Shown piece after piece: positions 10,439-56,528 of a stretch of 58,403 nucleotides of DNA. The notes under the pieces were generated by a model. That model saw nothing but the letters and a program-made list of their open reading frames with translations, did not search any database and was not told the origin of the DNA. Source of the DNA: a virus (lineage: Duplodnaviria; Caudoviricetes). The stretch is from the IMG/VR virus record IMGVR_UViG_3300048598_000026, positions 1 to 58,403 of that record. One strand, 5' to 3'. A program made the position numbers and the translations under genes. Position 1 is the stretch's first letter. Every line of letters begins with the position of its first letter.

Positions 10439-10467
10439 TTTTATTTCCTCCTTTAAATATTGGTTTC

Positions 10468-10492
10468 CATAATAGGAGGTGTAAATTTCGCG
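10468..10492 (-). promoter_or_regulatory. 25-bp motif, copy 3
   Basis: CGCGAAATTTACACCTCCTATTATG. Confidence 0.7.
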
Positions 10493-10548
10493 TAAAAAAC
10501 CACATTCAGAAAGAAGAGTATCTTTTATGTTTATTTTTCTTTTCAATA

Positions 10549-18974: not shown

Positions 18975-19937
18975 TCACATCAGATCCAAAATGTTACCGT
19001 CTACGTTGAAGTCGAGAATGACTACTCGTTCGTATTTTTCTTTTCCGAATTTTTCACCCATCGCTTTATCCTTTCGGTAAGTTTCCTCATCCTTTCGGTA
19101 AGTTTCATAGATTCCAAAATCGACATAGTTGTCACCAAGGGGGTTTTCGGAATTATAGACCCAGCCAACAATTTGACCGGCTTTTGTTCTCGGAATCCCA
19201 AGAGTATCCAATACATCGTTCAGATACAGATATCCATTGACTCTCAATTTATCATTAGCATATTGCTGCTGGGCCAAAAGAAACATCCGATTATAGTCTC
19301 CATCTTTTTCCCAATAAGGATTGGACTCTTCAAAAAAGAAAGAATAATCGCTCAACGAGCCTTTTTCAACAACATTGATAGACTCTTTGACCTTCTTTTC
19401 TTTTCCGTCTTCGTCGACCACGACTTTTTCAATCTTTTTTGCTTTGATGTTATACTTCAGCTCACGGTCGACTTCTTCGCCAAAGCGCTCTACGACACGA
19501 TTACGGTATTCCTTGAATCCTTTATCAACCGCAGCATAGGCCGCCGCCAGTGCCACATTGCGTTTACGCAGAATATTGTTCGACGCCAGGATACTTCCGA
19601 GAGATAGAACACCGAGAGCTACTGACGGAGCATAAAGTTTCGCGAGCTTAAATCCGGTCTGAACATAAACGATCGCTAAATCCTTCTTGACGTCTTCAGG
19701 TGTATACTCTTCTGTTAGAGCTTCATTAGAAGCACAATCATGGATAGAATCAATATCTTCCTTGGACTTTTCAAGAATATCACTAACCTTAGTGGTAGCT
19801 TTACAAGCCATAACCGCACTTACTACGGTCCCAATTACACCAGCTACAACAAGGATTTCAGGGCTGTGTTTCTTAAGCCGAAAACCAATCTTGTTAAACG
19901 AACTGCTTACAGTCGTCATAAGTTCTGTTTTTTTCAT
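18975..19937 (-). CDS. DUF6353-like membrane protein, paralog 1
   Basis: KKHSPEILVVAGVIG...LYLNDVLDTLG...GWV...VDFG. Confidence 0.65.
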   Translation of the reverse strand: MKKTELMTTVSSSFNKIGFRLKKHSPEILVVAGVIGTVVSAVMACKATTKVSDILEKSKEDIDSIHDCASNEALTEEYTPEDVKKDLAIVYVQTGFKLAKLYAPSVALGVLSLGSILASNNILRKRNVALAAAYAAVDKGFKEYRNRVVERFGEEVDRELKYNIKAKKIEKVVVDEDGKEKKVKESINVVEKGSLSDYSFFFEESNPYWEKDGDYNRMFLLAQQQYANDKLRVNGYLYLNDVLDTLGIPRTKAGQIVGWVYNSENPLGDNYVDFGIYETYRKDEETYRKDKAMGEKFGKEKYERVVILDFNVDGNILDLM

Positions 19938-19939
19938 AA

Positions 19940-20215
19940 TTAGATATTCTCCTTTCTCGATGCAATTTCTGCGCCGCAAGCCGCATAACCGGCCAAATCT
20001 ACGAAGCTGTCATCAGTTGCCGTTCCGGTCTTAATTCGAGCAATCTTAAGTAATGCCATCATCATGGACACATCAGTTGCCGTAAACTCAACATTTTTAT
20101 ATGCCGACCACAAATCGGCTATTGACCGAAAATTATCTTCGGGGGAACCGTATTCTTTTTCTCGCTGGCCGCACACACATTGTTTGGCCTTATCCAAAGT
20201 TTCTGCTCTATTCAT
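19940..20215 (-). CDS. DUF6378-like protein
   Basis: REKEYGSPEDNF..IADLWSAY...LKIAR...DSFVDLAGYAACG. Confidence 0.7.
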   Translation of the reverse strand: MNRAETLDKAKQCVCGQREKEYGSPEDNFRSIADLWSAYKNVEFTATDVSMMMALLKIARIKTGTATDDSFVDLAGYAACGAEIASRKENI

Positions 20216-20953: not shown

Positions 20954-21193
20954 TTACTCCTCAATCTCAGCATCTTCGAATTTATCAATTTCCTCGTCCA
21001 TCTTCTGCTGTTCCTTCTTGGCTTTAATTTTAGCCACCATCGGTTTGACTACATACTTGTAAGCTGCTACACCTCCAAGAACTGCCAATCCGATACCGAC
21101 TACTATCTTAAATACCTTCCCAGAACCCGCCGTTGCGATATCCTCAGTTACTTCGATAACCTCGCCATTTACCATGATTTCGTTAGTATTCAT
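20954..21193 (-). CDS. Small membrane protein
   Basis: One TM helix; downstream of motif copy 4. Confidence 0.65.
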   Translation of the reverse strand: MNTNEIMVNGEVIEVTEDIATAGSGKVFKIVVGIGLAVLGGVAAYKYVVKPMVAKIKAKKEQQKMDEEIDKFEDAEIEE

Positions 21194-21236
21194 TTTATTT
21201 TCTCCTTTCAAATATAGAAAAGTCTATATGTTCTTC

Positions 21237-21261
21237 CATTAAAGACCGTGTTTTTTTTGCG
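21237..21261 (-). promoter_or_regulatory. 25-bp motif, copy 4
   Basis: CGCAAAAAAAACACGGTCTTTAATG. Confidence 0.65.
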
Positions 21262-21271
21262 CACCTAAATA

Positions 21272-22039
21272 CTACCTGCTGTACTCATATCTAGGAGCAA
21301 CTTGATAATCAATGACGAGACATGGGGTTCCTTCGTCCGCTAACTGCGAGCTGAATCTCAAATCAATATAACCGTGGTCAATGTTCCATCCGAGATCATA
21401 GCCGATACTGGTAGGATTAAGTCCGATTTCGTAATAGAACTCATTAAGTGAAATGTATATTTCATCTCTCATTTTTCGATTGAGTTCGTTCTCGGCTTTC
21501 TTCAACTTATCGATATCCGATTTGAAGTATCGACCCGAAATCACATCATAACAGAGCGTATTACCCTTTTCAGTGATGATGATTTCTCGGCTACTAACCG
21601 GGTCCCGGTCAATCCTACCTTTCGCGATTGCGTCTCTTACGGATTGTTCCTTTTTTTCGCCGATAGCTTCAATCACTTTTTCTTGGTAATCTTTTAAAGC
21701 GGATTCAGATAACGTATAAGCCGTAGCCAACGCTGCATTACGACGGGCATTTACGGAGCTCGCTCCAATTAGACACGCTACAGATAAAGCGCCTGTGACC
21801 GCTGCTGGAACGTAACAAATCCACGCGGTTTTAATGGTTTCTACAGATGTAAGCTCATCCACACCTTCCTCGTTTTTCTTTTCCTCTATGAGAATAAGAG
21901 CTTTGGGCGTCGCTCTAACCGCTAGCATAGTGGTTGTGATCATCCCAGCAATTCCAATTCCGGTAAGAATCTCAGGACTATGTTTTTTCATTGCCGTCCG
22001 AACACTTTTAGCAATGTTAGATAGATTAAATTTACCCAC
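21272..22039 (-). CDS. DUF6353-like membrane protein, paralog 2
   Basis: KKHSPEILTGIGIAG...SLNEFYYEIG...LGW. Confidence 0.7.
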   Translation of the reverse strand: MGKFNLSNIAKSVRTAMKKHSPEILTGIGIAGMITTTMLAVRATPKALILIEEKKNEEGVDELTSVETIKTAWICYVPAAVTGALSVACLIGASSVNARRNAALATAYTLSESALKDYQEKVIEAIGEKKEQSVRDAIAKGRIDRDPVSSREIIITEKGNTLCYDVISGRYFKSDIDKLKKAENELNRKMRDEIYISLNEFYYEIGLNPTSIGYDLGWNIDHGYIDLRFSSQLADEGTPCLVIDYQVAPRYEYSR

Positions 22040-22094
22040 GTTTTTTCTCCTTTCGTTTTCTAAGTTTGTGGAGCCGCCAACAAGGGGTGGAGAT

Positions 22095-22626
22095 TTACAT
22101 CAACAGAAAAGCCGGACGAACCCCACGAGAAGTCGAAGCGTTGCCGGAGCCCGCACGGCCAGAGTAGAACACATAAGCGAAATGAGCTGCAGAAACTTCT
22201 TTTTTCATTGTATTTTGTATCCAATACCACTCATAGTCGTTATTGTAATCAGCAATGCGATTTTTTCTCTTTTTCATAATAATCTGGTTCCATTACACAA
22301 TCATACCAATCATCATGGCCTAATATCTGACCATACGTAGGAATACTAAGGTCACTAATCCTGTTTTTCATATCTTCGGGGAACGCATCCAATAGCACAG
22401 TGTTAATCCACTTGTAGAGATCCGATTTCTCATAACCACCTTTATTATTGTATTTGTTGTTCATGGGCTTATCCGCGACACACTCATCGAACAAAAACAG
22501 TGTTCCCTTATCGGTGATTTTCTGGGCTGTAGCGGTGAACTCACCAAAGCCAGTCAAATGAATGATGATCTGGTCGCCCACTCGAACATTGTTTGTTTCT
22601 AATTCCCGTTTTCTTAATACCTTCAT
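22095..22626 (-). pseudogene. Second DGR target (C-type-lectin-like fold), split by a frameshift into 22249-22626 and 22095-22277
   Basis: N-part KPMNN..NKGGYEKSDLYKWIN...LSIPTYGQILG; C-part WYWIQN...GVRPAF carries VR2; the two overlap in different frames. Confidence 0.75.
22112..22193 (-). repeat. DGR variable repeat VR2 (remote)
   Basis: 82-nt ungapped match to TR 31319-31400; 16 mismatches, all at TR adenines. Confidence 0.95.
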
Positions 22627-22961
22627 GATTTGTCTCCTTTCAAAAATAAATAAAGAATGTCTTCGGCAGCATTCTTTGCAATTGAAAATATAGGATTTGG
22701 TTTCTCATCGTCTCTAAAACACGAATAGTTTTCCATATCATTTATAAATTCTAAGATGATATCGATTGGTGATTTTGGTTCCCGTCCTGTAATATGAAGG
22801 GGTAGTCGTAATATCTCTTCATAAATACGTCCTTGAATTTCGTAGGCTGCCCATCTCGAATAACTTCGTTCTCGAATATAATACTTCGGCCAATTAGATC
22901 TGGGTTCAAAAAGGTGTTCGTCTATGTATTCTTGGATTACTGATATTGCCGATTCATTCAT
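22623..22961 (-). CDS. Hypothetical protein
   Basis: 112-aa ORF overlapping the next start (ATGA). Confidence 0.65.
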   Translation of the reverse strand: MNESAISVIQEYIDEHLFEPRSNWPKYYIRERSYSRWAAYEIQGRIYEEILRLPLHITGREPKSPIDIILEFINDMENYSCFRDDEKPNPIFSIAKNAAEDILYLFLKGDKS

Positions 22962-22985
22962 ACCATCCTCTCCCAGAAAGAAAAA

Positions 22986-23003
22986 GAGCCCTTGTTAGGA
23001 CTC
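22986..23003 (-). terminator. Intrinsic terminator, TAACAA-loop family
   Basis: GAGTCCTAACAAGGGCTC plus T-run; upstream gene's TAA stop is in the loop. Confidence 0.65.
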
Positions 23004-23153
23004 CTCTTCGTTTCTTTTGGCAAGCGCCTCATTTACTTTTTCTTCAATTTTTTCATCTATCTTCTTGTCATTAACCCAATCGGTTATGAGTGTTGCACCC
23101 ATTCCGATTACAGTTGCTGCAATACCAAGGATTTTAATCAATTTACCGTTCAT
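22995..23153 (-). CDS. Small membrane protein
   Basis: MNGKLIKILGIAATVIGMGATL...EEES*. Confidence 0.65.
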   Translation of the reverse strand: MNGKLIKILGIAATVIGMGATLITDWVNDKKIDEKIEEKVNEALAKRNEEES

Positions 23154-23171
23154 AAGACAATTACCCCCTTT

Positions 23172-23196
23172 CATAATAGTGGTTGTAAATTTTGCG
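23172..23196 (-). promoter_or_regulatory. 25-bp motif, copy 5
   Basis: CGCAAAATTTACAACCACTATTATG. Confidence 0.7.
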
Positions 23197-23199
23197 AGA

Positions 23200-24024
23200 T
23201 TAAACATCTTCCATATATTCAGCGGTTGGTTCGAAGACCATGTCAATTATAAATATTTCCATTCCATCATCGAGAACGACTTTGTGATGATTGAAGTCAA
23301 TCCAGTATATATCGCCATTACAAGATGACCAGCCCACAGCTTCGCCAATATCAATTTTTTCAAGACCAAGAAACTCATAGAAGTCATTCAGAGGAATTAC
23401 TCCTTTGAACATAAAATTCCTGTTAAAATGGTATTCTGCTTGAATGACTTTGCTTATAGTGGATTCAAAATGTCTTTGTGAAAAACTGTCATAAAATGTA
23501 CGAGTTATTTCTGGCTCCATTCCATCATCAAAATCAAGCGTGGAACAGCAAATAAAAGAATCAGCAGTAATATGAACATCTTTGCATTTCTCTTTAACTA
23601 TAGAGTCAACTATTGCGTTATGAACTTCCTCTCCATAAAGCTCTTTTAATTTTGCTTTGTACTCTTGGTAAGAACTACTTAACAATGCATAAGCACTTGT
23701 TAACGCGGCTTGTCTTCTCTGATTTAAAGCATTTGCGCCAAAGATACAAATAATTGTGGAGGCGCCAATGGTTATCGACGGAATATAACATTTCCATGCC
23801 GATATAATTGCTTCTGTTTTGGTGTACCCATATGGGTCTCCATCGTGTTTTTTTCGGCTATCGGCCTTAATTAGTTCAAGAGCCTTAGGCGTTGATCTAA
23901 CTGCCGAAATCGCGGTAGCCACGACACCAATGGAAGCTATGCAAGTCAATAGAATAGGAGAATGTCTTTTCAAATATAACTTTGACCTGTATAGAGCTTT
24001 TTGGATTGCCGGCTTTGTATTCAT
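23200..24024 (-). CDS. DUF6353-like membrane protein, paralog 3
   Basis: KRHSPILLTCIASIG...LNDFYEFLG...VGW...WIDF. Confidence 0.7.
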   Translation of the reverse strand: MNTKPAIQKALYRSKLYLKRHSPILLTCIASIGVVATAISAVRSTPKALELIKADSRKKHDGDPYGYTKTEAIISAWKCYIPSITIGASTIICIFGANALNQRRQAALTSAYALLSSSYQEYKAKLKELYGEEVHNAIVDSIVKEKCKDVHITADSFICCSTLDFDDGMEPEITRTFYDSFSQRHFESTISKVIQAEYHFNRNFMFKGVIPLNDFYEFLGLEKIDIGEAVGWSSCNGDIYWIDFNHHKVVLDDGMEIFIIDMVFEPTAEYMEDV

Positions 24025-24075
24025 GTTTTCTCCTTTCAAAATATAAGAGCCTTTGTCTGGGCTCTAAAAATTAAA

Positions 24076-24170
24076 GAAAGAGCACACGAGCGTCATAAAT
24101 GACGGTTAATCTCCTTCCGTTTCCGGGACGATATTGAAATCGTCTTAACAGTTTACCTCTGTACTCTTTC
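24076..24170 (-). ncRNA. Putative multibranched structured RNA
   Basis: Starts right after motif copy 6; 10-bp closing stem enclosing several helices; no ORF; followed by a U-rich tract. Confidence 0.6.
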
Positions 24171-24195
24171 CATAATAGACTCTGTATTTTTCGCG
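24171..24195 (-). promoter_or_regulatory. 25-bp motif, copy 6
   Basis: CGCGAAAAATACAGAGTCTATTATG. Confidence 0.7.
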
Positions 24196-24215
24196 TAAAA
24201 AAAGAGAAGAGGAGG

Positions 24216-24401: not shown

Positions 24402-24424
24402 AACATTACCTCCTAAATTGTTTT

Positions 24425-24449
24425 CATAATAGGGGGTGTTATTTTCGCG
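24425..24449 (-). promoter_or_regulatory. 25-bp motif, copy 7
   Basis: CGCGAAAATAACACCCCCTATTATG. Confidence 0.7.
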
Positions 24450-24450
24450 C

Positions 24451-24810
24451 TTAAATATTAGCTCTATCAAATACCGTCTCCCAGCGTGCTTTTGGAATCG
24501 GCTTCATTTTTAGCGCCCACATGATTTGTCTGACAGTAACAGTGGGGTATAAACCGTCCGTACACTCTCCAGAACGTTTATCAAAATATTCTTTAAATCC
24601 TGGACGCAAATATAGATCGTCAGTCAACCAAGGATCTAATTCGCTCCACCACGTACTCTTAGTTTCCTCGTCAAAACGCTGCTGTATCACTGATAAACCC
24701 TTATCGCCTATTTGAAACAGAGTACAACTGTTATAAACTGGATGTTCGCAAATATGAAGTTTTCCGTACATCGATAAATAAATTGTAGGTTTCTCATGGT
24801 GATACCGCAT
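24451..24810 (-). CDS. Hypothetical protein
   Basis: 119-aa ORF, GGGGG RBS. Confidence 0.65.
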   Translation of the reverse strand: MRYHHEKPTIYLSMYGKLHICEHPVYNSCTLFQIGDKGLSVIQQRFDEETKSTWWSELDPWLTDDLYLRPGFKEYFDKRSGECTDGLYPTVTVRQIMWALKMKPIPKARWETVFDRANI

Positions 24811-24831
24811 AAAATCCCCCAAAAGAAAAAA

Positions 24832-24849
24832 GAGTCCTTGTTAGGACTC
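24832..24849 (-). terminator. Intrinsic terminator, TAACAA-loop family
   Basis: GAGTCCTAACAAGGACTC plus T-run; stop codon in loop. Confidence 0.75.
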
Positions 24850-25113
24850 AATCTCTTTTTCTTTAATATCTCTTAATTTGATATGTTTGGTTGTAAGATT
24901 AGCATTTTTGACTTTAAGTTTCCAAATGTCAACACAAGCCGCCTTAGATAAGCCTTTTAATGTTTCAAACGCTGCTTCTGCTTGAAGAACCGTTGCTTCA
25001 CAACAATTAGCCCTTCTAAAAAGATTTAACGCTTCTTTCATTCGCTTGTCTAATTCGGTAATCATAGCGTTGAATACTTTCAACTCGTCATAATAACTCG
25101 ACTTATATACCAT
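24841..25113 (-). CDS. Hypothetical protein
   Basis: GGAGG RBS; ends ...EIES* inside the terminator. Confidence 0.6.
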   Translation of the reverse strand: MVYKSSYYDELKVFNAMITELDKRMKEALNLFRRANCCEATVLQAEAAFETLKGLSKAACVDIWKLKVKNANLTTKHIKLRDIKEKEIES

Positions 25114-25140
25114 AACCCATACCTCCCAAAATATAGTTTT

Positions 25141-25165
25141 CATAATAGGAGATGTTATTTTAGCG
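25141..25165 (-). promoter_or_regulatory. 25-bp motif, copy 8
   Basis: CGCTAAAATAACATCTCCTATTATG. Confidence 0.7.
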
Positions 25166-25177
25166 TAAAAGAAAAAA

Positions 25178-25195
25178 GAGTCCTTGTTAGGACTC
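25178..25195 (-). terminator. Intrinsic terminator, TAACAA-loop family
   Basis: GAGTCCTAACAAGGACTC plus T-run, immediately upstream of motif copy 8. Confidence 0.75.
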
Positions 25196-25209
25196 CTTCC
25201 TTGATTTTA

Positions 25210-25488
25210 TTAGTCTACGTATTCTACTGGATAACCAGCGAGGTCTCTTAAATATGCATCCTGACTTTCAGCCCATCCGCATTCTAAGCAATAGTAGCAA
25301 AAACCCTTAGCGTCCGGGACCATCGAAACCTTACCACATTTAGGGCATGGTCCTCTTCCTAACGTCTCTTTCAGCCTTGCAATGACCTCTTCTGGGTCTT
25401 CGTTTTCGTCCAACTCTGAGTAGTCAATCCCACTATCGTCGCCGTTATCGTAAATAAAATCGTGTTCATCTTTTTTCTTTTTGCTCAT
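25210..25488 (-). CDS. Small acidic Zn-ribbon protein
   Basis: CPKC...CLECGW. Confidence 0.65.
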   Translation of the reverse strand: MSKKKKDEHDFIYDNGDDSGIDYSELDENEDPEEVIARLKETLGRGPCPKCGKVSMVPDAKGFCYYCLECGWAESQDAYLRDLAGYPVEYVD

Positions 25489-25591
25489 AAAAACATTACC
25501 TCCTCATTAATTAGAAAGCAATTATACCCAATTATATATCACTTTCCGTATTAAGTCGAGAGATACAAAGAGCTCTTTAACATCTCCTTTC

Positions 25592-25616
25592 CATAAAGGG
25601 CCTTGTAAAATTCACG
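25592..25616 (-). promoter_or_regulatory. 25-bp motif, copy 9
   Basis: CGTGAATTTTACAAGGCCCTTTATG. Confidence 0.65.
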
Positions 25617-25675
25617 TGGAAAAACGAAGAGAACGTGCAAATTACACGACTCTTCGTTCTTTTGAACTATTAAGC

Positions 25676-26068: not shown

Positions 26069-26104
26069 TCTAGTTCTCCTTTCAATAAACGATTTAATTA
26101 GTTC

Positions 26105-26129
26105 CATAAGAGAGGGTGTTATTTATGCG
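26105..26129 (-). promoter_or_regulatory. 25-bp motif, copy 10
   Basis: CGCATAAATAACACCCTCTCTTATG. Confidence 0.65.
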
Positions 26130-26340
26130 GAATGAAACTTTTAAGGTTGACATTCATGGTTATGTACTTCTTTCGATAAACCTCACCGATATCTTTTGAC
26201 AACTCCAAAAACAAATATGGACTGTCGTCCGGATCGGAGGTGTCTACTCGAAGGGTGCCAACAGATTTGATGCGAGCCACAATGACCGAACAAACACTCC
26301 CGACCAACACTCCGATTCCAAATATAATAAATAGTTCCAT
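26119..26340 (-). CDS. Small membrane protein
   Basis: N-terminal TM, GTLRVDTSDPDDSPYLFLEL. Confidence 0.7.
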   Translation of the reverse strand: MELFIIFGIGVLVGSVCSVIVARIKSVGTLRVDTSDPDDSPYLFLELSKDIGEVYRKKYITMNVNLKSFIPHK

Positions 26341-26433: not shown

Positions 26434-26460
26434 AAATCTAAGCTAGGATAAAAAAAAAGA

Positions 26461-26509
26461 AAGAACCCTTGTTAGGGGTTCTTTCATAATAGGAATTGTA
26501 AAATTTTCG
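26461..26509 (-). promoter_or_regulatory. 25-bp motif copy 11 (26485-26509) abutting a TAACAA-loop terminator (26461-26483): empty cassette
   Basis: CGAAAATTTTACAATTCCTATTATG then AAGAACCC-CTAACAA-GGGTTCTT plus T-run. Confidence 0.65.
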
Positions 26510-27396: not shown

Positions 27397-27507
27397 TTGC
27401 TTCTACCTCCCTTCAAAAACTATTCTAGGTTAAAAACGGCTATTAGTAAAAACAACCAAAGTGGACAAAAATAAAGAGCCTTTGTTATGGCTCTTCTTTG
27501 TTTAATT

Positions 27508-27840
27508 CTAAAGACGTTTATGATCCCACAATAGGAGTTGTGATTTTTGCGACTTCCATCGAATCATGGTCATTTCACAAGGGTAGTCCTCGAAACCGAT
27601 TGTGTCAGGAATTATGAGCTCTTCTAATACACCCCTTATTATTTCAGCCTCGTATTGTTTATAGGGGTAAATATCATCTGGAAGCTCCCTGTGAATCTCT
27701 CCGCATTCTACGCATCTCAACCTGCGTATTTCTATGTATTTTGATATTCGGCCCTTAGTCCGTACAATTCTTTTAACTTTATCGTAATATTTTAAATATC
27801 CTCCGCAATCCGGGCAAGTTGACTCGTTATTATTAATCAT
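27508..27840 (-). CDS. DUF6431-like Zn-ribbon protein
   Basis: CPDC...RRLRCVECG..HRELPD..PYKQY; divergent from the integrase. Confidence 0.6.
   Translation of the reverse strand: MINNNESTCPDCGGYLKYYDKVKRIVRTKGRISKYIEIRRLRCVECGEIHRELPDDIYPYKQYEAEIIRGVLEELIIPDTIGFEDYPCEMTMIRWKSQKSQLLLWDHKRL
27527..27551 (-). promoter_or_regulatory. 25-bp motif, copy 12
   Basis: CGCAAAAATCACAACTCCTATTGTG; terminator hairpin at 27474-27495 follows about 30 nt later. Confidence 0.6.
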
Positions 27841-27961: not shown

Positions 27962-28010
27962 TACATAATTCAACTAGAAATTCTTAATCAAGTTGGAAAG
28001 GAGGAACATC

Positions 28011-29249
28011 ATGTTAATGAAATGTCCAGAATGCGAACTGCAAGTAAGCGATAAGGCACTGTCTTGTCCTCATTGTGGATTCCCGTTACAGCCGGATGTA
28101 AAACCAAGAAAACCTAGAAATAAAAATAACAAGAGAAGACGCTTACCTAATGGATTCGGACAAATAAGTGAGATAAAGAATCGCAATCTTAGAAACCCGT
28201 TTCGGGCAATGGTTACAGTCGGAAAGACACCTACCGGTAGACCCATTTGTAAACCTCTCAAACCGGAATCGTATTTCCCAACATATAACGATGCTTATAC
28301 TGCGTTAGTAGAGTATAACAAGAATCCATATGATTTAGAGCCATCAATAACGGTAAAAGAGCTTTATGAAAAGTGGACAAAAGAATACTTTAAGACTATT
28401 GGAGAATCTAGCATAAGAGGAACTGAAGATGCTTGGCGATATTGTACAGCCGTACACAATATGAGGGTGATAGATATTCGAGCCCGTCACATAAAAGGTT
28501 GTATGGAAGAGGGTAAAGCTACGATTAGAGGTAAAGAGCAAATGCCAAGTGCCTCTATGAAAAACAAAATCAAGACTCTATTCAACCAGATGCTTGACTA
28601 CGCTGTGGAATATGAGCTTGTAGACCGGAATTACTCCAGGACCTTCAATTTATCCGACGAAACCATTAAAGAGATTCAGACGGTTAAGAAGGAGCATATA
28701 GCATTTGCTGATTCGGAAATGGAGTTGCTTTGGCAGCATGTAGACAACAAGCGACTTGTTGACGTCTTGCTTATTCAATGCTATTCTGGATGGAGACCCC
28801 AAGAACTCGGTCTAATCGAACTAACTAAAGTGGATTTGGACAAGGGGTTATTCACCGGAGGTATGAAAACAGACTCCGGCACTGACAGAACTGTTCCAAT
28901 CCATTCACGCATTAAATATCTGGTAGAGAGAAAATATGAAGAGGCTCAGAAACTAGGCAGCGATTACTTGTTCAACTATATTGACGTGGACGGTAATCGA
29001 AGAAATATAAAGCTGACTTACAACCGGTATAAGAAAGTATTCGAACGAATCCGCGATGAACTTAACTTAAATCCTGAACACAGGCCTCATGATGGACGTA
29101 AGCATTTCGTCACGGCTGCTAAAAAATACGGCGTTGACGAGTACGCAATCAAATATATGGTCGGTCATAAAATTTCAGATATTACCGAGAAAGTATACAC
29201 TGACAGAGAGTTAAAGTGGCTTAAAGAGGAAATAGAAAAAATAAAATAG
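28011..29249 (+). CDS. int: Tyrosine integrase with N-terminal Zn ribbon
   Basis: YSGWRPQE, K, HDGRKHF, MVGH...TEKVY catalytic residues; N-terminal CPEC...CPHC. Confidence 0.92.
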   Translation: MLMKCPECELQVSDKALSCPHCGFPLQPDVKPRKPRNKNNKRRRLPNGFGQISEIKNRNLRNPFRAMVTVGKTPTGRPICKPLKPESYFPTYNDAYTALVEYNKNPYDLEPSITVKELYEKWTKEYFKTIGESSIRGTEDAWRYCTAVHNMRVIDIRARHIKGCMEEGKATIRGKEQMPSASMKNKIKTLFNQMLDYAVEYELVDRNYSRTFNLSDETIKEIQTVKKEHIAFADSEMELLWQHVDNKRLVDVLLIQCYSGWRPQELGLIELTKVDLDKGLFTGGMKTDSGTDRTVPIHSRIKYLVERKYEEAQKLGSDYLFNYIDVDGNRRNIKLTYNRYKKVFERIRDELNLNPEHRPHDGRKHFVTAAKKYGVDEYAIKYMVGHKISDITEKVYTDRELKWLKEEIEKIK

Positions 29250-29260
29250 GGTGTATTGTG

Positions 29261-29456
29261 TGTAGGAATAGAGGTATAGGAGTGGTGTAGGAGTAATATA
29301 CGATTTACATACATTTCCCTACATTTAACCACTCTTAGCCACTTCTGAAAATATTGATTTTGCTGGGTTTTTGGTGTTTAGGCACCAGAATCTGTTTCTA
29401 TTATAGAAACAAAAAATCCCGATATATCAGCATTTTTGTGTTGAAATGTAGGAATA
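29261..29456. other. Candidate attP
   Basis: Arm-like T(G/A)TAGGA repeats at 29261, 29275, 29286, 29447 around the inverted repeat TGTTTCTA-TTA-TAGAAACA (29393-29411). Confidence 0.6.
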
Positions 29457-29605: not shown

Positions 29606-29950
29606 TCAAACCGCTGTTGAGTCTTTGTCAGTTAGTGTCTCGATGTATTTCGACTTTCGAATTGGTAATTTGTTAACTTCCTGCATAACACGTTTTGCAG
29701 ATCCATTAGCACCCATTTTTTCGTATGGCTTATATAAGTAATCATTAAGATTCTCATATTCGTCTTGAGTGATCCAACCACGCTCAATATGGCACATGCC
29801 AAGATATATGATTCTATCATGACCTAGCCCTATAAGCATTTCGGTTTTGACATCTTTCTTTTCAAGTTTTTTTTGTAAATATGCCCAAAAGCCCGAAGAT
29901 GCGATTACTGAGCAGACAATTGTGATGATCATTTGAATCCATGGTTCCAT
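29606..29950 (-). CDS. Holin-like membrane protein
   Basis: N-terminal TM, GLGHDRI...LYKPY..MGANG; end of late transcript. Confidence 0.6.
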   Translation of the reverse strand: MEPWIQMIITIVCSVIASSGFWAYLQKKLEKKDVKTEMLIGLGHDRIIYLGMCHIERGWITQDEYENLNDYLYKPYEKMGANGSAKRVMQEVNKLPIRKSKYIETLTDKDSTAV

Positions 29951-30000
29951 AAGCGGATACCTCCTTAAGGAATTCTTGTGGCGGTATATGAAAAGAAAAA

Positions 30001-30018
30001 GAGCCCTTGTTAGGACTC
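30001..30018 (-). terminator. Intrinsic terminator after the DGR RT, TAACAA-loop family
   Basis: Identical to 22986-23003 including flanks. Confidence 0.65.
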
Positions 30019-30024
30019 CTCTTT

Positions 30025-31209
30025 TTATAAAAGGACCAGTTTCTTATTGACAATAATAACCTTCTTATTAAACAGTTCCTCATAAAGGCATATAAGATTT
30101 TGTCTTTGTTGCCTTGATAATAGTTTGTAGAAACTACCCATCCAACCTTTAAACATATTTTCAACATTCTCATAGAGGACGTCGCCATTTTTCACTTTGA
30201 TGGCGAGTTTCTTTAGTTTTCTACGTATTGCTGTGACGCGTTCCGGATTTATTCGCTTTATGATCTTACCAGAACTGGTCAAGGTATATTTTATTTGGAG
30301 ATACTTATACGTGCCGCCGATTACCACGATTCTGGTCTTTTTCTCATTAATGTGGATCCCTAACCCCTTAGCAATTACACGAATATGATTTAAAATATCA
30401 AGTAATTCTTCTTTTGATGGGTTCATTATGTACCAATCATCCATATAACGCCCATAATATTTTTGACTTCTTACGTATTTTACATAATTGTCTATACGAT
30501 ATGGGTAATAGATACCAATTACTTGAGATAGTTGATCACCAATATTTACAGATTTTTCCATAAACTTCTTGCCTGTAAGCTCAGATTTTGGAATGAGCCT
30601 GTACTCAAGTTTGTTAAACGTATCTTCCATACAGGTAGAATACTCTTCGTCCGTCATATACGATGCATCAATTTTAAACCCATCAAATATAAGAGTAAGT
30701 AACCAGTCAATGAATTCATCATCGTCTAATAGCTTAAGTAGCTCCCTCTTGGCAATTTCGTGAATGACGTTGTCAAAGAACTTACTAAAATCACCAAACA
30801 AAATATAACCTTCATTACCATGCTCTATATAATATTTTCGGAGATGTACCTCGAAACGATTTCTCGAATGTGAGATTCCACGCCCCTTAATAGAAGCACC
30901 GTTATCGTAAATGATCTTTTTCTGAACCTCGGGAAGTAATATCTCATCACATAAAACATGACGGACTATACGATCCTTGGTTTGTAGACTTGTAATAGGC
31001 CTAACTCTACCTCGTTCAGAAAGTGAGAACTCATCAGTTGGTCCATTTTGTAGACTTCTGTTGATAAGATCTTCTTGAATGAAAAATATATACCGAAGGA
31101 AGTTCAGCATTACCTTTTGAGTTGACTCCTTCCATTTACTTCCTTTTATAGAGGCTTTGTAGGCCTTATACAAGTTATTGGCGTCGCAAAGTATCTCCTC
31201 ATAATTCAT
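30025..31209 (-). CDS. DGR reverse transcriptase
   Basis: DRIV, GDFSKFFDN, IGDQLSQ, YGRYMDD; adjacent TR and Avd. Confidence 0.95.
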   Translation of the reverse strand: MNYEEILCDANNLYKAYKASIKGSKWKESTQKVMLNFLRYIFFIQEDLINRSLQNGPTDEFSLSERGRVRPITSLQTKDRIVRHVLCDEILLPEVQKKIIYDNGASIKGRGISHSRNRFEVHLRKYYIEHGNEGYILFGDFSKFFDNVIHEIAKRELLKLLDDDEFIDWLLTLIFDGFKIDASYMTDEEYSTCMEDTFNKLEYRLIPKSELTGKKFMEKSVNIGDQLSQVIGIYYPYRIDNYVKYVRSQKYYGRYMDDWYIMNPSKEELLDILNHIRVIAKGLGIHINEKKTRIVVIGGTYKYLQIKYTLTSSGKIIKRINPERVTAIRRKLKKLAIKVKNGDVLYENVENMFKGWMGSFYKLLSRQQRQNLICLYEELFNKKVIIVNKKLVLL

Positions 31210-31318
31210 AGTTATTCACCGTTATAGCAATAGTTACCTTAGTAAATTGCGTCCGGCTTTGTCATTTATCCTTGATGGAAAGGATAGCATCTCCTTCTCT
31301 GTTGGTTAGGCAGAGAAT
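31210..31318 (-). ncRNA. DGR spacer RNA segment (3' of TR)
   Basis: Hairpins at 31295-31317, 31267-31286 and 31227-31250; segment AAAGCCGGACG at 31250-31260. Confidence 0.7.
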
Positions 31319-31400
31319 CCGGACGAACCCCATTAGAATTCGAAGCGTTGTTGGAGTTCGCATTGCCATTGTTGTTCACATTAGCGAAATTAGCTGCAGA
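31319..31400 (-). repeat. DGR template repeat (TR)
   Basis: 11 AAY codons; matches VR1 and VR2 except at adenines. Confidence 0.97.
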
Positions 31401-31408
31401 TTTAGATG

Positions 31409-31894
31409 CTACCCCTGTAAATATAATTTGATCTTGTTGTCTCTTTGACGCCATTTCTTTATCAAACCGATTTCTCGGTTAATAGCTTTGATGTACTTTC
31501 CATAGATATTGATGTCGACTTCAAATATTTCTACGACTCGCTGTAGCTCTTTGACTAGTTGTTCGCAATTTGCTATTGCGTCGTTCTGGTAATCTCTTCG
31601 ACGCTCATATTCATGCAAAGAAGTCGGATAAAGAGTATTAGCTGCTCTCACGTTGCTTGTAAGTAGAGATGATATATGGTCAATACGATTTTTAGAGTTC
31701 TGCATCAAATATCTGTATTTTGCAAAATCTTCTTTATCATCTTTTCCATATGCATAGCGAATACGTACAAGATTGTCCAAATCTTTAACGCCGAAACTTC
31801 TTTGCATGAGTTCTGTGAGCATAGCGTGTAGCTCTATGGAATAAGTTACCGCCTCAAATTTTGATTCTTTACGGTCGCTAACTAGAACACTCAT
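31409..31894 (-). CDS. avd: DGR accessory variability determinant (Avd-like)
   Basis: Basic helical protein ...AANTLYP...RRDYQ..AI..C...E..LIKKWR immediately upstream of TR. Confidence 0.75.
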   Translation of the reverse strand: MSVLVSDRKESKFEAVTYSIELHAMLTELMQRSFGVKDLDNLVRIRYAYGKDDKEDFAKYRYLMQNSKNRIDHISSLLTSNVRAANTLYPTSLHEYERRRDYQNDAIANCEQLVKELQRVVEIFEVDINIYGKYIKAINREIGLIKKWRQRDNKIKLYLQG

Positions 31895-32034
31895 TAGTAA
31901 GCCTTGCCGGTGATTTCTTCGAATTCGGCTTCAGTAATCCAGTTCATTATAACCGCATTTCGAACCCGAGTCTCATTCCACATCTTCATGACATAATAAG
32001 TCTTTACTTTATTGTAATTATCGCTATAATTCAT
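31894..32034 (-). CDS. XkdX-family small protein (absent from the ORF track)
   Basis: MNYSDNYNKVKTYYVMKMWNETRVRNAVIMNWITEAEFEEITGKAY; TAATG coupling to avd. Confidence 0.85.
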   Translation of the reverse strand: MNYSDNYNKVKTYYVMKMWNETRVRNAVIMNWITEAEFEEITGKAY

Positions 32035-32049
32035 GGTGATCCTCCTCTC

Positions 32050-32385
32050 TTAAAGCTCTACGCCCGTCATCATTGACAGATAATCGATGTCGGACCGAAT
32101 CTTAATCTGTTTGAGTTCTTCTAAAGAAATATCACGAAGAACAAACCAGTATTCACTGTTAACTTCGGTAACCTGAACGAGCTCCATGTTGTCATGGATT
32201 TCATCATGAGTTCCATCACTGATTATGACCGGAGAGCACTTGCCGTCAAAAACTTCCGGATCGATAGGTTCTACGGAAATATAATTATTCCCATTGAGTT
32301 TAAGGTTGTTTATTTCCGTTCCGTCATTAAGAGTGATTTTATAGTTTTTTTCATCCATTTCCATTTCAACTCTCATCCCTTTCAA
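32050..32385 (-). CDS. Tail-associated hypothetical protein upstream of xkdX
   Basis: C-terminal SDIDYLSMMTGVEL; actual start may be a few codons downstream. Confidence 0.7.
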   Translation of the reverse strand: MKGMRVEMEMDEKNYKITLNDGTEINNLKLNGNNYISVEPIDPEVFDGKCSPVIISDGTHDEIHDNMELVQVTEVNSEYWFVLRDISLEELKQIKIRSDIDYLSMMTGVEL

Positions 32386-32399
32386 TTTTTTCTTTTTTT

Positions 32400-32430
32400 A
32401 TAACATATATTCCGGTAACCTGCGTACGGA
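32400..32430 (-). promoter_or_regulatory. 31-bp second-class motif, copy B (upstream of the DGR operon)
   Basis: TCCGTACGCAGGTTACCGGAATATATGTTAT. Confidence 0.55.
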
Positions 32431-32441
32431 GTTTTTAAAAT

Positions 32442-32456
32442 GGGGCACAAGGCCCC
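32442..32456 (-). other. DGR hairpin/cruciform downstream of VR1
   Basis: GGGGC-CTTGT-GCCCC 9 nt after the target stop codon. Confidence 0.7.
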
Positions 32457-32465
32457 TAGATTAAG

Positions 32466-33287
32466 CTAACCAACAGGGAATGCCGGACGAACCCCAAAAG
32501 AAAACGAAGCGTTGTTGGAGTACGCATTGCCAAAGCTGTTCACAAAAGCGAAATTAGCTGCAGAAACGACATCTCTCAACCAGATTGATTGGCGATTCTT
32601 ATACGCTCTTGGATTAAGTCTAAACAATGATAGCTGCGAATTATCAATAGTGGTCCTTGTAGGAACAACTACCCCATTACCTGCTGGAGTACGTACGTAA
32701 GATCCATATACCATAATTTCATTCATAAGCTCAACGCTGGAATCAAACCATGCAGCGGCGGAAGAAGCACCATCAGTTACAGCGTTTACGAGATATTCTC
32801 TATGAGTGAGAAGCATATCACCAAAAGCTGTTAAAATTGTGGTCTTTGCATTATCTAGATTCGCTGTATACATGAGGGAGCCTACATAACCGCCCTCGGT
32901 AGTGTTTGTGGTATTCATCACCGCATTATAAAGTGAACCGTTAGGAACAATCACTAGATGGTGTTTCGTAAATGCGGTATCGCCGCAATTATACCAGTAA
33001 TCCATATCTGCTATTACCCAAGATACACCATTGATAACCCAGTAATCCCCGATGAACAAATCGTCAAATGTTCCGGATTGAATTGCCGCTTTCTGAGCCG
33101 CAGTAATAGTGGTTCCAAGATTTTTCCCTCTGTAAACATTTCGACGATTAACCACCGAAACAAGACCTGCAAATTCGATGGCCGCATCGCTAGCAAGAAT
33201 CTTTTTAGTACCACCACTACCATCTTTAATAAGGATATCTCCGGCGGTAAATCGAGTATCGGCAGCGTAAGTAATAAGTTTTGCCAT
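32466..33287 (-). CDS. DGR target 1, probable receptor-binding tail protein with C-terminal CLec-like fold
   Basis: Ends IWLRDVV-VR1-GVRPAFPVG; in tail module. Confidence 0.88.
   Translation of the reverse strand: MAKLITYAADTRFTAGDILIKDGSGGTKKILASDAAIEFAGLVSVVNRRNVYRGKNLGTTITAAQKAAIQSGTFDDLFIGDYWVINGVSWVIADMDYWYNCGDTAFTKHHLVIVPNGSLYNAVMNTTNTTEGGYVGSLMYTANLDNAKTTILTAFGDMLLTHREYLVNAVTDGASSAAAWFDSSVELMNEIMVYGSYVRTPAGNGVVVPTRTTIDNSQLSLFRLNPRAYKNRQSIWLRDVVSAANFAFVNSFGNAYSNNASFSFGVRPAFPVG
32483..32564 (-). repeat. DGR variable repeat VR1
   Basis: 82-nt match to TR; 10 mismatches, all at TR adenines. Confidence 0.97.
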
Positions 33288-33302
33288 TTTGAATTTTCCT
33301 CC

Positions 33303-33998
33303 TTAAATAAATGTACTATCGAGCAAAGCGTGTTCGTTCAATCTCGCAATATCTTCGCTTGCTTCAGAGATCCAAGATTCGACAGAAGTTAACCTACCGG
33401 AAATCAGTAACGATGCAATGCTATTTACAAGTATCGTCAAATCAGAAATATCTTTTCGCAAATCGACGATATCCGACATATCCGCAAACAATGTTCTTCC
33501 CAGAAGACTATCATCCGTACTGTCGATAAGATCGTATCCATTGGAATCCATCAATTCTTGATATATTGCGTGATCCATCAGGTCAGACTTCATAGCCATA
33601 ACTTTTGCAACCTTGCTATCTACTTCGTCATTTGCAGTTTCAGCAGCATAAGCAGCTTGGCTAGCGATATAAGCTGATGATGATGCATTAGACGCGGATG
33701 TAGCCGCTTCAGAAGCCTTGGTAGAAGCTGTAGACGCTGATGATGCTGCATTGGACGCTGACGTAGAAGCTGCTGATGCTGAAGACGATGCCGCAGATGC
33801 TTTGGTAGAAGCTGTGGAAGCGGATTGCGATGCCGCAGAAGCAGAGTTGGTGGCTGAGTTTTGAGCCGTCGATGCCGCCGACATAGCTTCGCTCGATTCG
33901 ATATTCATCGCGTTTATAGCATCATGAATAGCCCCTCGAACTTCTTCACCATAGACAGCAGACATTATTCGGTTTAAATACATGTTAATATTCGCTAT
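33303..33998 (-). CDS. Tail fibre/adaptor protein with Ala-Ser-rich repeats
   Basis: YGEEVRGAIHDAI N-terminus, ASTASTKAS repeats; RBS spacing favours ATA at 33998 over ATG at 33983. Confidence 0.65.
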   Translation of the reverse strand: MANINMYLNRIMSAVYGEEVRGAIHDAINAMNIESSEAMSAASTAQNSATNSASAASQSASTASTKASAASSSASAASTSASNAASSASTASTKASEAATSASNASSSAYIASQAAYAAETANDEVDSKVAKVMAMKSDLMDHAIYQELMDSNGYDLIDSTDDSLLGRTLFADMSDIVDLRKDISDLTILVNSIASLLISGRLTSVESWISEASEDIARLNEHALLDSTFI

Positions 33999-48887: not shown

Positions 48888-49625
48888 CTAATAGACAACA
48901 GATTGCATTGAATTACCGAAGCTATCCAAAAGTAAATCATTGTTCGAATCTCTTAAATACATATGAATTTGAAAAAGCTCTTTTATCTCTGAAACTAATG
49001 GAAGTCTCGCATCCGTTTCGGTACTGCCATACAATACTTCTTCTATACTTTTTAAAACATTAACCAAACCGGAAGACTTGAATTTTGTAGAGTCGCAAAT
49101 CAGGAACGCAATAGGTTTAAACCCATCAACCAATACCGGGGTAGTGGTAATTTCCCAGGAAAAAGTTATTGCTTCTGGGCTATCATTAATGGTTGAATAT
49201 TCTTTATCCGAAGGAGCCGCCAAAGCTCCATAAATCAAATGAATCTTATATCCATAATCGGTTGCATCTTTATCATTACCAATTAAAGTACGATAGCATA
49301 AACCAAAAAGCGATTTCTTCTGTTGAGTAATCGTAATCCCAGGAATTATCGCATGTTCACCTAAACATCGCTTAAATTCATCAGGATAAGTATAAGCCTC
49401 AATTGTGGCACCGAATTCTTCGGCGGATAGCAGATTCAAATACTTGATGTTATCAGCATACAAAGGGTTGGGTTCAGCACCCGAAGGGGATTCGGTTACA
49501 GCTGTAAGACCACTCCACGCAACACCTTTCGTGTACCCTCCAGTCTGAATAGGATAAAGAACACCATGACTGACACCGGTTTCATAAAAACGTTCACCGG
49601 TCTTATCCCAAACAAGTTTCGACAT
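48888..49625 (-). CDS. Major tail protein paralog 2 with C-terminal extension
   Basis: First ~84 aa identical to paralog 1; extra LRDSNNDLLLDS tail. Confidence 0.8.
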   Translation of the reverse strand: MSKLVWDKTGERFYETGVSHGVLYPIQTGGYTKGVAWSGLTAVTESPSGAEPNPLYADNIKYLNLLSAEEFGATIEAYTYPDEFKRCLGEHAIIPGITITQQKKSLFGLCYRTLIGNDKDATDYGYKIHLIYGALAAPSDKEYSTINDSPEAITFSWEITTTPVLVDGFKPIAFLICDSTKFKSSGLVNVLKSIEEVLYGSTETDARLPLVSEIKELFQIHMYLRDSNNDLLLDSFGNSMQSVVY

Positions 49626-50305
49626 TTTGATTCCTCCTAAATTAAGAAGACATCAGCGTAATAATCTCAGCGGGTAGAGGTAGTCTTGACTCGGTCTGAG
49701 TATCACCATAAAGAATTTTTTCCAAAGCGAATAAATTTGCCTCATTAACCTTAGTGCTATCAATAGTCACACTAGCTGTCGGCTTATGACTCGGGACATC
49801 AACTGGTGTGGTGGTAATTTCCCAGGAAAAAGTTATTGCTTCTGGGCTATCATTAATGGTTGAATATTCTTTATCCGAAGGAGCCGCCAAAGCTCCATAA
49901 ATCAAATGCAGCTTATAACCATGATCATTGTTGTCAATGTCATTACCGATAATTGTTCTATAACAAAGACCGAAAGTTTTACGGTTTTGCTGTCCGATTT
50001 TCACCCCAGGAGCAATTTCCGCAGAACCATCGCACTCTGCGAATTCATCAGGATAAGTATAAGCCTCAATTGTGGCACCGAATTCTTCGGCGGATAGCAG
50101 ATTCAAATACTTGATGTTATCAGCATACAAAGGGTTGGGTTCAGCACCCGAAGGGGATTCGGTTACAGCTGTAAGACCACTCCACGCAACACCTTTCGTG
50201 TACCCTCCAGTCTGAATAGGATAAAGAACACCATGACTGACACCGGTTTCATAAAAACGTTCACCGGTCTTATCCCAAACAAGTTTCGACATTTTGATTC
50301 CTCCT
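49375..50305. repeat. 264-bp exact direct repeat (49375-49638 = 50042-50305); second 98-bp block 49144-49241 = 49811-49908
   Basis: Direct comparison; both blocks offset by 667 bp. Confidence 0.9.
49642..50292 (-). CDS. Major tail protein paralog 1
   Basis: ESPSGAE, YADNIKY, IEAYTYPDEF, INDSPEAITFSWE. Confidence 0.85.
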   Translation of the reverse strand: MSKLVWDKTGERFYETGVSHGVLYPIQTGGYTKGVAWSGLTAVTESPSGAEPNPLYADNIKYLNLLSAEEFGATIEAYTYPDEFAECDGSAEIAPGVKIGQQNRKTFGLCYRTIIGNDIDNNDHGYKLHLIYGALAAPSDKEYSTINDSPEAITFSWEITTTPVDVPSHKPTASVTIDSTKVNEANLFALEKILYGDTQTESRLPLPAEIITLMSS

Positions 50306-53905: not shown

Positions 53906-54224
53906 CTCCTAAACGATCGAGCGAATTGGCGATGATCTTAAGTCCTCCGATGATTTGTAACATGTGCAAAGTATCGATTTTTCCAGCCTTTATCATCGTT
54001 TGGATAGATTTAGAACTTATCGCCACGCCACCAATAATACGAAGTATATCAAGAACCTCATGTTTACCATTCGCAGAGATATTTTTCTTGGTGTTACTAT
54101 CCTTTTTGGGCGAAGTTTTTTGTTTAAATTCTTTTCTTCCCGCAACGCGATCAAGAGTCCCCCTGGTTCTTCTTACACCCCACTTCATTCCGAGAATGCC
54201 ATAATGTTGCAAACTATTGCTCAT
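53895..54224 (-). CDS. Head-module protein with LQHYGILGMKWG N-terminal motif
   Basis: Shares RBS and first 19 codons with 56002-56523. Confidence 0.65.
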   Translation of the reverse strand: MSNSLQHYGILGMKWGVRRTRGTLDRVAGRKEFKQKTSPKKDSNTKKNISANGKHEVLDILRIIGGVAISSKSIQTMIKAGKIDTLHMLQIIGGLKIIANSLDRLGGDD

Positions 54225-54240
54225 GATCGTTATCCCTCCT

Positions 54241-56001: not shown

Positions 56002-56523
56002 TTATTTTTTAGTTTTTTCAAGAATAGCCTTAATCTTTTCGGCATTGTTATAAATAGTAAGAGCTGTAGTAGTAACAGCCGCAACGGTTGTCCCAGCTTT
56101 GATAATCTTTTGTGTATACTCTTTTCCCTTACTAACACTACCTTCGGATAATTGAGAATACTGCCTTTCCATTTGAAGACGATTTACAACTTTTCGAAGC
56201 TCGTCATCGGACATTTCCTTAACATTCTTAGACTTTGCTTTCTTGTTAACTTCTCTCAAAGTCCTATTTTTTTCTTTATCTTTTGCAATACTGTTTCTCC
56301 TTGCTTCTTCCATCGCTTTACGAGCATTTTTATTAGCTTGTCTAACGGTTACATATTTAGATGATGCTCTATCTTTCGCGATACTATTTAATCTTGCTTC
56401 TTTCATTGCTTTTCGAGCATTTTTATTAGCTTGTCTAACGGTTACATATCCGAGTTGAGCTGGGTTTCTTCTTACACCCCACTTCATTCCGAGAATGCCA
56501 TAATGTTGCAAACTATTGCTCAT
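56002..56523 (-). CDS. Basic head-module protein with LQHYGILGMKWG motif and internal 31-aa duplication
   Basis: YVTVRQANKNARKAM x2; MSDDELR...RLQMERQY. Confidence 0.7.
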   Translation of the reverse strand: MSNSLQHYGILGMKWGVRRNPAQLGYVTVRQANKNARKAMKEARLNSIAKDRASSKYVTVRQANKNARKAMEEARRNSIAKDKEKNRTLREVNKKAKSKNVKEMSDDELRKVVNRLQMERQYSQLSEGSVSKGKEYTQKIIKAGTTVAAVTTTALTIYNNAEKIKAILEKTKK

Positions 56524-56528
56524 GATCG

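Follow-up and report, generated by a model that had tools for sequence, protein, structure and literature searches.

A remote second target of a phage diversity-generating retroelement in a small DUF6273 gene, split in one genome and intact in its relatives

The virus record IMGVR_UViG_3300048598_000026 (Duplodnaviria; Caudoviricetes), a complete record of 58,403 bases that was analyzed over its entire length (hereafter, the window), encodes a single diversity-generating retroelement (DGR) with one template repeat (TR) and two variable repeats (VR). VR1 adjoins a tail-fibre-like gene, and VR2 lies 9.2 kb from the TR, on the far side of the integrase gene, at the 3' end of a small gene for a DUF6273 protein. 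Judging from the pattern of substitutions between the repeats, VR2 is a genuine, non-adjacent second variable repeat of this DGR. We consider it likely that VR2 is a real remote target of the one DGR, that this target is conserved in the phage lineage, and that the copy in the present genome has been inactivated.

The second variable repeat and its broken gene

A repeat search across the window identified a single family with three copies, at 22108-22207, 31315-31414 and 32479-32578, from which 82-nt cores were compared in ungapped register on the minus strand: VR2 (22112-22193), TR (31319-31400) and VR1 (32483-32564). VR2 aligns to the TR without gaps and differs from it at 16 positions, all 16 of which are TR adenines, exactly as had been claimed in an earlier note made from the sequence alone; both peptide strings quoted in that note were reproduced exactly as well. 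Given the composition of the TR core (23 A, 20 C, 18 G and 21 T), the hypergeometric probability that all the VR2 mismatches fall on adenines by chance is 5.9e-12. No change was detected in VR2 over the 59 non-adenine positions, and 22 of the 23 adenines of the TR core occupy the first two positions of 11 AAY codons. VR1, which is located within a 273-aa target protein (32466-33287) adjoining a gene (33303-33983) that matches the tail fibre family phrog_3279, shows the same pattern (10 mismatches, 10 of 10 at TR adenines). The GC-rich 3' end of the repeat, 13 bases that resemble an initiation of mutagenic homing site (22112-22124, minus strand), is the same in VR2, TR and VR1; the corresponding motif, GGGGTTCGTCCGG, has three matches in the window with at most one mismatch, all of them at the repeats (0.03 expected).

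The Avd-TR-RT cassette, at 30.0-31.9 kb, contains all its parts with open reading frames. The reverse transcriptase (RT; 30025-31209, minus strand; 394 aa; Pfam RVT_1, E = 2.9e-16) retains, in translation, the motifs YMDD and IGDQLSQ, the latter a hallmark of DGR-type RTs, and the Avd accessory protein (31409-31894, minus strand) matches phrog_3206, 'Avd protein of DGR' (E = 1.5e-10). The tyrosine integrase between VR2 and this cassette (27993-29249, plus strand; Pfam Phage_integrase, E = 2.2e-15) places VR2 where the earlier note had it, as a remote second target of the same TR across the integrase. The attP crossover zone can be positioned approximately at 29370-29413, between the RT side and the integrase: this is where the similarity of integrated relatives to the window begins, and non-integrated relatives align further.

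By the known mechanism of DGRs, RT and Avd would copy the TR RNA into cDNA with adenines misread, and the cDNA would overwrite any repeat that has the shared GC-rich motif at its end and a short GC-rich hairpin behind it. This phage has two such repeats, VR1 in the 273-aa protein beside the tail-fibre gene and VR2 at the 3' end of the DUF6273 gene across the integrase and attP. In the relatives, the DUF6273 gene remains in register with the TR of its own genome, also in integrated prophages where the two are 42-50 kb apart, and in the present genome the target has been damaged by a 17-nt deletion and by the breakage of two of the five core pairs of the hairpin.

The interval 22095-22626, taken as one protein in the earlier note, proved to consist of two open reading frames (ORFs) in different frames (translation table 11). 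ORF A (22249-22626, minus strand; 125 aa) corresponds to the N-terminal part of the DUF6273 domain (PF19789; profile positions 2-66 of 172, E = 3.3e-6, 27.5 bits), matches phrog_21980 (E = 2.5e-43) and is preceded by a good Shine-Dalgarno sequence, with its ATG overlapping the stop codon of the upstream gene. ORF B (22095-22277, minus strand; 60 aa), which holds VR2, corresponds to the C-terminal part (positions 115-170 of 172, E = 7.6e-5, 23.1 bits); against the Pfam gathering cut-off of 23.5 bits, ORF A scores above and ORF B just below. The two ORFs cover complementary stretches of one profile and thus are the two ends of one domain; the start methionine of ORF B is internal and conserved within the intact proteins of relatives. 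The frame is shifted at 22278-22284 (minus strand), where DNA alignment shows a clean gap of 17 nt in the window compared to 6 of 6 aligned relatives, so that the VR2 gene is not intact in this genome. The protein alignment shows the window product to be short of about seven residues between the halves, and the tblastn segments of relatives change frame at 22282/22280. The C-terminus in the window is one codon shorter than in the relatives.

Other explanations of the split were tried. A homopolymer slip or a programmed frameshift was rejected given that the break is a 17-nt deletion that takes out conserved residues, and readthrough of TGA as a sense codon would meet a TAA two codons later. 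ORF B is unlikely to be an independent mini-gene: no Shine-Dalgarno sequence precedes its ATG, and its 60 aa amount to one third of the domain.

A second lesion is seen downstream of the repeat. VR1 is followed by an intact hairpin (GGGGC-CTTGT-GCCCC; 32442-32456, minus strand), and comparison with VR1 and with relatives reveals a degraded counterpart after VR2 (CCACCC-CTTGT-TGGCGG; 22074-22090, minus strand). A GC stem of 5-6 bp with a CTTGT loop is present at a fixed distance after the repeat in 14 other sequences, namely, the window VR1 and 13 VR2 flanks of relatives, and the stem is either GGGGC/GCCCC or CGCCC/GGGCG. In the alignment of these sequences together with the window VR2 (n = 15), 85% of the cells are paired compared to 62% in shuffled alignments, with none of the 500 shuffles reaching 85%, and CG/GC swaps are found at three of the pairs, in five sequences. 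Within the five core pairs, just two cells are unpaired, and both belong to the window VR2. In Bordetella phage BPP-1, a downstream hairpin is needed for homing; by analogy, the damage to the hairpin suggests that recognition of VR2 as a target could be weakened in this genome.

Together, the frameshift and the hairpin lesions indicate that the VR2 gene copy in the window is probably a recently inactivated, decaying target, with a repeat that still has no non-adenine change. The latter feature implies that either the damage is recent or homing continues.

Conservation and use of the target in relatives

A protein search with ORF A retrieved 249 homologues at E <= 1e-3, and 114 of the 120 listed homologues are 176-190 aa long. 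Among 19 loci from IMG/VR, each of the 18 complete copies is one ORF of 181-211 aa (the remaining copy is truncated by the contig end), and all 25 copies in contigs of bacterial genomes read through both halves. The intact gene, of about 183 codons, belongs to the conserved core of a lineage of temperate Clostridia phages. The named hosts are mostly Lachnospiraceae isolates, including Cuneatibacter caecimuris, [Ruminococcus] torques, Enterocloster lavalensis, Hungatella hathewayi and Blautia species. Most of the IMG/VR loci (19 in all) and most of the genome loci (25) share the order of the surrounding genes, with little or none of it in loci L010 and L046-L051: the integrase is followed by several small genes, a DUF6353 gene, a small membrane protein, a 112-aa protein and the DUF6273 gene, and then by DUF6353, a small membrane protein, a 199-aa protein, DUF6353, further genes and the DNA polymerase-primase.

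In the records of relatives from which the TR was retrieved, the distant repeat matches its own template. The mismatches fall on TR adenines in 16 of 16 cases, plus one edge position, in genome G005, where VR and TR are 11 kb apart; in 15 of 15 in the G002 provirus (48 kb); in 14 of 14 and 18 of 18 in the two copies of Cuneatibacter caecimuris DSM 29486 (50.5 and 48.6 kb, respectively), both of which match the one TR of that genome; and in 8 of 9 in Blautia glucerasea (41.7 kb). The expectation of the earlier note that, after integration, VR2 and TR would come to lie in opposite arms of the prophage is thus borne out in integrated relatives, where the two are separated by about 42-50 kb. The non-adenine positions vary between lineages and agree within each pair of a TR and its own VR2, which is the outcome predicted by repeated overwriting. 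Among 114 members of the family, variability is highest at 11 alignment columns, which coincide exactly with the 11 AAY codons.

Acutalibacter phage Fontainebleau (ON453893.1) encodes a distant homologue with 36% identity, located between the genes for DNA polymerase I and a helicase, that differs from the TR beside the RT of that phage, 25 kb away, at 13 positions, all of them adenines. The DGR components of this phage (L023-L025) map to ON453893.1 9330-9899 and 35120-36482, with the RT match in two adjacent pieces; the terms DGR, retroelement and diversity-generating do not occur in the paper that names phage Fontainebleau.

Four pairs of loci (L032/L057, L038/L053, L041/L054 and L042/L056) yielded no TR-VR match within the thresholds used. 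The first three of these pairs combine RT loci that lack the searched motif with genes that carry a C-terminal extension and include one VR, that of L032, with one extra codon; in L042, the RT is only a remnant. The extension, of about 100 aa past the DUF6273 domain, is shared by five Lachnospiraceae prophages (L032, L035, L038, L041 and L042; gene from 10001), in which the VR is accordingly internal. Several relatives possess two small DUF6273 copies, either in tandem or with a DUF6353 unit between them (L008, 1177-2323; L028, 1069-2200; L031, L033, L034 and L048).

Some relatives show loss or decay of the DGR. The complete 53-kb genome G001 (the record of L001), with terminal repeats, contains the target gene and no RT; the Hungatella hathewayi prophage retains only RT residues 233-393 (G010:C1:3297997-3298479); and the RT of G005 (G005:C1:2276-3454) has an internal TAA, with a VR2 that is identical in four loci from different samples (L014 and L016-L018). 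The VR-like C-termini in L011/L012 (5391-5520), L013 and L043 depart from the template pattern, and the hairpin is missing in L011 and L012; these look like decayed targets.

Several points weigh against our interpretation of a conserved target that has been lost in this genome. VR2, having no non-adenine change, may still be rewritten in spite of the broken ORF and the weak hairpin. In one relative (L003), the VR differs from the TR at 17 adenines and also at four non-adenine positions. Energy-based DNA folding of the VR flanks was no better than for shuffled sequences (z = +1.3, +0.2 and -0.7), so that the case for the hairpin rests on the comparison across relatives and not on folding energy; the five sequences with swapped stems may stem from one event, and the T runs that follow the hairpin in some relatives make a role as a terminator possible. 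The host names attached to contigs of metagenome-assembled genomes may be binning errors. Finally, the structural model of an intact relative that is used below to assess the fold is a moderate one (predicted local distance difference test score, pLDDT, of 78 for the top model, with the remaining four at about 57).

The deletion itself could be an assembly or sequencing fault or a minority variant, in which case the population would have a working target of 177-183 aa; the absence of non-adenine drift between VR2 and TR is in line with this possibility, as is the intactness of every complete copy in the IMG/VR loci and the bacterial genomes. We regard it as unlikely: the loss of 17 nt is unlike a homopolymer slip, and it is the sole sense-strand frame break in the 22.4 kb of the window that is covered by ORFs of relatives (three further breaks flagged in the same comparison concern antisense ORFs), and the two additional unique lesions in the hairpin along with the shortened C-terminus at the same locus fit real decay.

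One template serving two targets, one of them remote, is already established, and the locus described here adds to that kind; the earlier note overstated its unusualness, given that small, remote DUF6273 second targets are already in print. DUF6273 has been described as a C-lec-like domain of DGR targets. The relevant passages of published work report one TR with two DUF6273 targets in nd4/nd12 (PMC10743442) and in phages Lelie and CP11, with 'small DGR target proteins' (PMC11792537), and, in the Faecalibacterium Toutatisvirus, a second DUF6273 target, a core gene at a distance of 17,480 nt from the TR, that persists without the DGR (bioRxiv 10.1101/2024.10.15.618418). More generally, according to the passages concerned, many non-adjacent targets of phage-associated DGRs lie within 50 kb of the RT (Wu et al. 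2017, PMC5758913), and the survey of Roux et al. was, by its own account, unable to detect remote targets (Roux et al. 2021, PMC8144416). In the same passages on small DUF6273 targets, receptor binding or adhesion is put forward as a proposal without experiments.

As far as these descriptions go, the present system resembles that of Toutatisvirus in having the TR between Avd and RT and two VRs, each at the C-terminus of a DUF6273 domain, and in the retention of the target by relatives without a DGR (here, G001). Unlike the Toutatisvirus target, which is located upstream of the TR, the second target here lies beyond the integrase and attP, before the DNA polymerase and flanked by DUF6353 genes, and it is frameshifted in this genome. 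With tgt2 of nd4/nd12 and with the Lelie and CP11 proteins, as portrayed in the respective passages, it shares a small single-domain DUF6273/C-lec protein with a C-terminal VR that is the second target of the same TR; those proteins, likened here by description and not by sequence, are 234-294 aa long compared to about 183 aa in the present family, and the nd4/nd12 targets are described as part of the DGR cassette, unlike the one considered here. The work of Wu et al. is at the level of a survey, and its passages, supplementary tables aside, do not name this lineage, the module or DUF6273 (PMC5758913). Literature searches, supplements aside, turned up no description of the module of this lineage, with its target beyond attP in the non-structural arm, or of the Fontainebleau case.

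The locus is of interest as a well-defined and widespread example of a remote second target. Cultured Lachnospiraceae, such as Cuneatibacter caecimuris and Blautia glucerasea, carry it in their prophages, and the inducible Acutalibacter phage Fontainebleau has it as well. In those phages, the second target belongs to a non-structural module, on the prophage arm opposite the template, and the choice between a virion adhesin and a non-structural function for small DUF6273 targets becomes testable in cultured strains. The copy in the window, if read correctly, offers a picture of target loss, with a frameshift and a damaged hairpin next to a repeat that is still template-perfect.

Fold and possible roles of the intact protein

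PF19789 is the precomputed Pfam domain in all 120 listed homologues, and it fills the whole protein, which is small and stand-alone, with neither a signal peptide nor a stalk; neither ORF A nor ORF B contains a hydrophobic segment, including at the N-terminus. The fold was modelled with AlphaFold2 on an intact relative (P0002), not on the broken window product, from an alignment of 65 sequences. The best structural match of this model is the DUF6273 N-terminal domain of the Thomasclavelia ramosa IgA peptidase (9qa6; Z = 12.8, root-mean-square deviation (rmsd) 2.6, 148 residues), followed by the C-terminal domain of Legionella Lcl (Z = 7.9), the variable protein TvpA of Treponema denticola (2y3c; Z = 7.8, rmsd 4.3, 133 residues aligned, 12% identity), the Bacteroides pilin 4eps (Z = 7.2) and about 35 C-type lectin domains with Z of 5-6; Foldseek concurs on the top two (9qa6 and Lcl). 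Subject to the quality of the model, a C-type-lectin-like fold of the DUF6273 target domain is supported, and the description given in the earlier note, of a small, stand-alone CLec-like domain with no signal peptide or fibre stalk, holds for the family. As in TvpA and in Mtd of Bordetella phage BPP-1, the VR occupies the C-terminal part of a C-type-lectin-like fold; unlike Mtd, which has trimerising N-terminal domains, the present protein has none, and Mtd is not among the fold matches listed. The intact protein most likely is a soluble binder with a rewritten ligand pocket.

The site of action of such a binder, on the virion or in the infected or lysogenic cell, is assigned more tentatively. 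A role as a virion or extracellular adhesin is quite possible, a non-virion role is possible, and some other role is somewhat doubtful. In a specific form of the adhesin proposal, which we also hold to be possible and no more probable than that, the intact protein would be an accessory adhesin or a receptor-binding protein that associates with the virion although its gene lies outside the structural module, with VR1 and VR2 exploring the same sequence space for related surface ligands. The closest solved folds are surface or secreted binders (the IgA peptidase N-terminal domain, Lcl, TvpA and the Bacteroides pilin), receptor binding or adhesion has been proposed in print for DUF6273 targets (tentaclins, Mtd-like tgt2 and Hoc-like proteins), and one TR serves both repeats; furthermore, the C-terminal extension in some relatives could be an attachment arm. 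All this has to be set against the location of the gene, which belongs to a conserved non-structural module in the 19 IMG/VR loci and in most of the 25 genome loci, and to the replication module in Fontainebleau, and against the lack of any structural match among the PHROG families.

That same location, between the integrase and the DNA polymerase, together with the TR-matched homologue of Fontainebleau and the lack of a signal peptide or membrane segment, speaks for the role that the earlier note envisaged, namely, an intact, stand-alone intracellular binder involved in anti-defence or host takeover, expressed from the early region and actively diversified in this phage. The neighbouring families do place the gene among non-structural genes, in agreement with that note, and the proposed role itself was drawn from gene position. 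We nevertheless consider this explanation highly improbable: the gene is frameshifted here, all PHROG families of the module are of 'unknown function', and the published proposals for small DUF6273 targets concern receptor binding. A PADLOC search with ten proteins of the module returned nothing for the DUF6273 ORF or for 8 of the 9 neighbours and a single weak ZorA row for the remaining neighbour (E = 0.008), and no defence or anti-defence family was otherwise matched; PADLOC contains models of defence, not of anti-defence, and is, accordingly, a weak test for an anti-defence role. The protein atlas, Pfam, PHROGs and PADLOC together gave no function for the neighbours in the module. The 'early' expression assumed in the earlier note likewise derived from gene position, and promoter-like sites are at chance level (9 found compared to 9.8 expected).

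A broader formulation would make the small stand-alone DUF6273 proteins a conserved class of non-virion DGR targets, that is, soluble hypervariable binders produced from the non-structural arm of temperate Clostridia phages that would work within the infected or lysogenic cell or at its membrane, with superinfection exclusion or counter-defence as examples of such a function. We view this as doubtful; should it be correct, phage DGRs would diversify more than receptor binding, and the broken copy in the window would represent a lineage that dispensed with the function.

Neighbouring genes and other repeats in the window

The VR2 gene is flanked by two DUF6353 membrane proteins with hydrophobic segments, one downstream (21272-22039, minus strand; Pfam E = 9.3e-88) and one upstream (23200-24039, minus strand; E = 2e-79). 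With a third gene at 18975-19979, there are three DUF6353 paralogues in the window, which have 25-35% identity to each other; each DUF6353 protein contains one or two hydrophobic segments. Both of the genes that flank VR2 are followed by a small membrane protein (22995-23153 and 20954-21211). Many Gordonia and Arthrobacter phages have two DUF6353 genes each, which lie between the tail genes and the primase/polymerase and are annotated as membrane proteins only, and literature searches turned up no paper mentioning the term 'DUF6353'. A gene for a 112-aa protein (22623-22961, minus strand; phrog_10740, unknown function) is translationally coupled to ORF A. In 17 of the 19 IMG/VR loci, it immediately precedes the DUF6273 gene, the exceptions being L010, where it was not found, and L015, where it is present with a gap before the DUF6273 gene; among the genome loci, it is upstream of a DUF6273 gene in 18 of 25. 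A blastn search with 21200-24100 and 29900-33400 against the INPHARED phages yielded no match.

A 43-nt motif (family D3) is present in seven copies, at 10465-10507, 23169-23211, 24168-24210, 24422-24464, 25138-25180, 25589-25631 and 26102-26144; one copy lies in the replication arm. Read on the minus strand, it has a start codon at its end (checked for the copy at 25138-25143) and a conserved block upstream, and could serve the small-gene region as a promoter, an operator or a translational element. On the same strand, GC hairpins with a T run after each (families D6 and D11) are found at 22969-23018, 24815-24864, 25161-25210, 26448-26491, 27459-27508 and 29984-30033; they probably act as terminators and delimit units of one gene each in the stretch from 23 to 30 kb, and their loop is the reverse complement of the loop in the hairpins that follow the VRs. 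An 895-aa protein (384-3071, minus strand) gives a full-length match to phrog_4291, 'RNA-dependent RNA polymerase' (E = 0); it is possibly a single-subunit RNA polymerase of the YonO-like kind, in which case it would be relevant to the transcription of the genes preceded by the 43-nt motif.

The structural arm contains three pairs of direct repeats: 49375-49638 is identical to 50042-50305 (100%), 49135-49308 resembles 49802-49975 (85%), and 54167-54240 is identical to 56466-56539 (100%). These repeats span adjacent paralogous ORFs (48888-49625 and 49642-50292) and reflect either a true duplication or an effect of the assembly.

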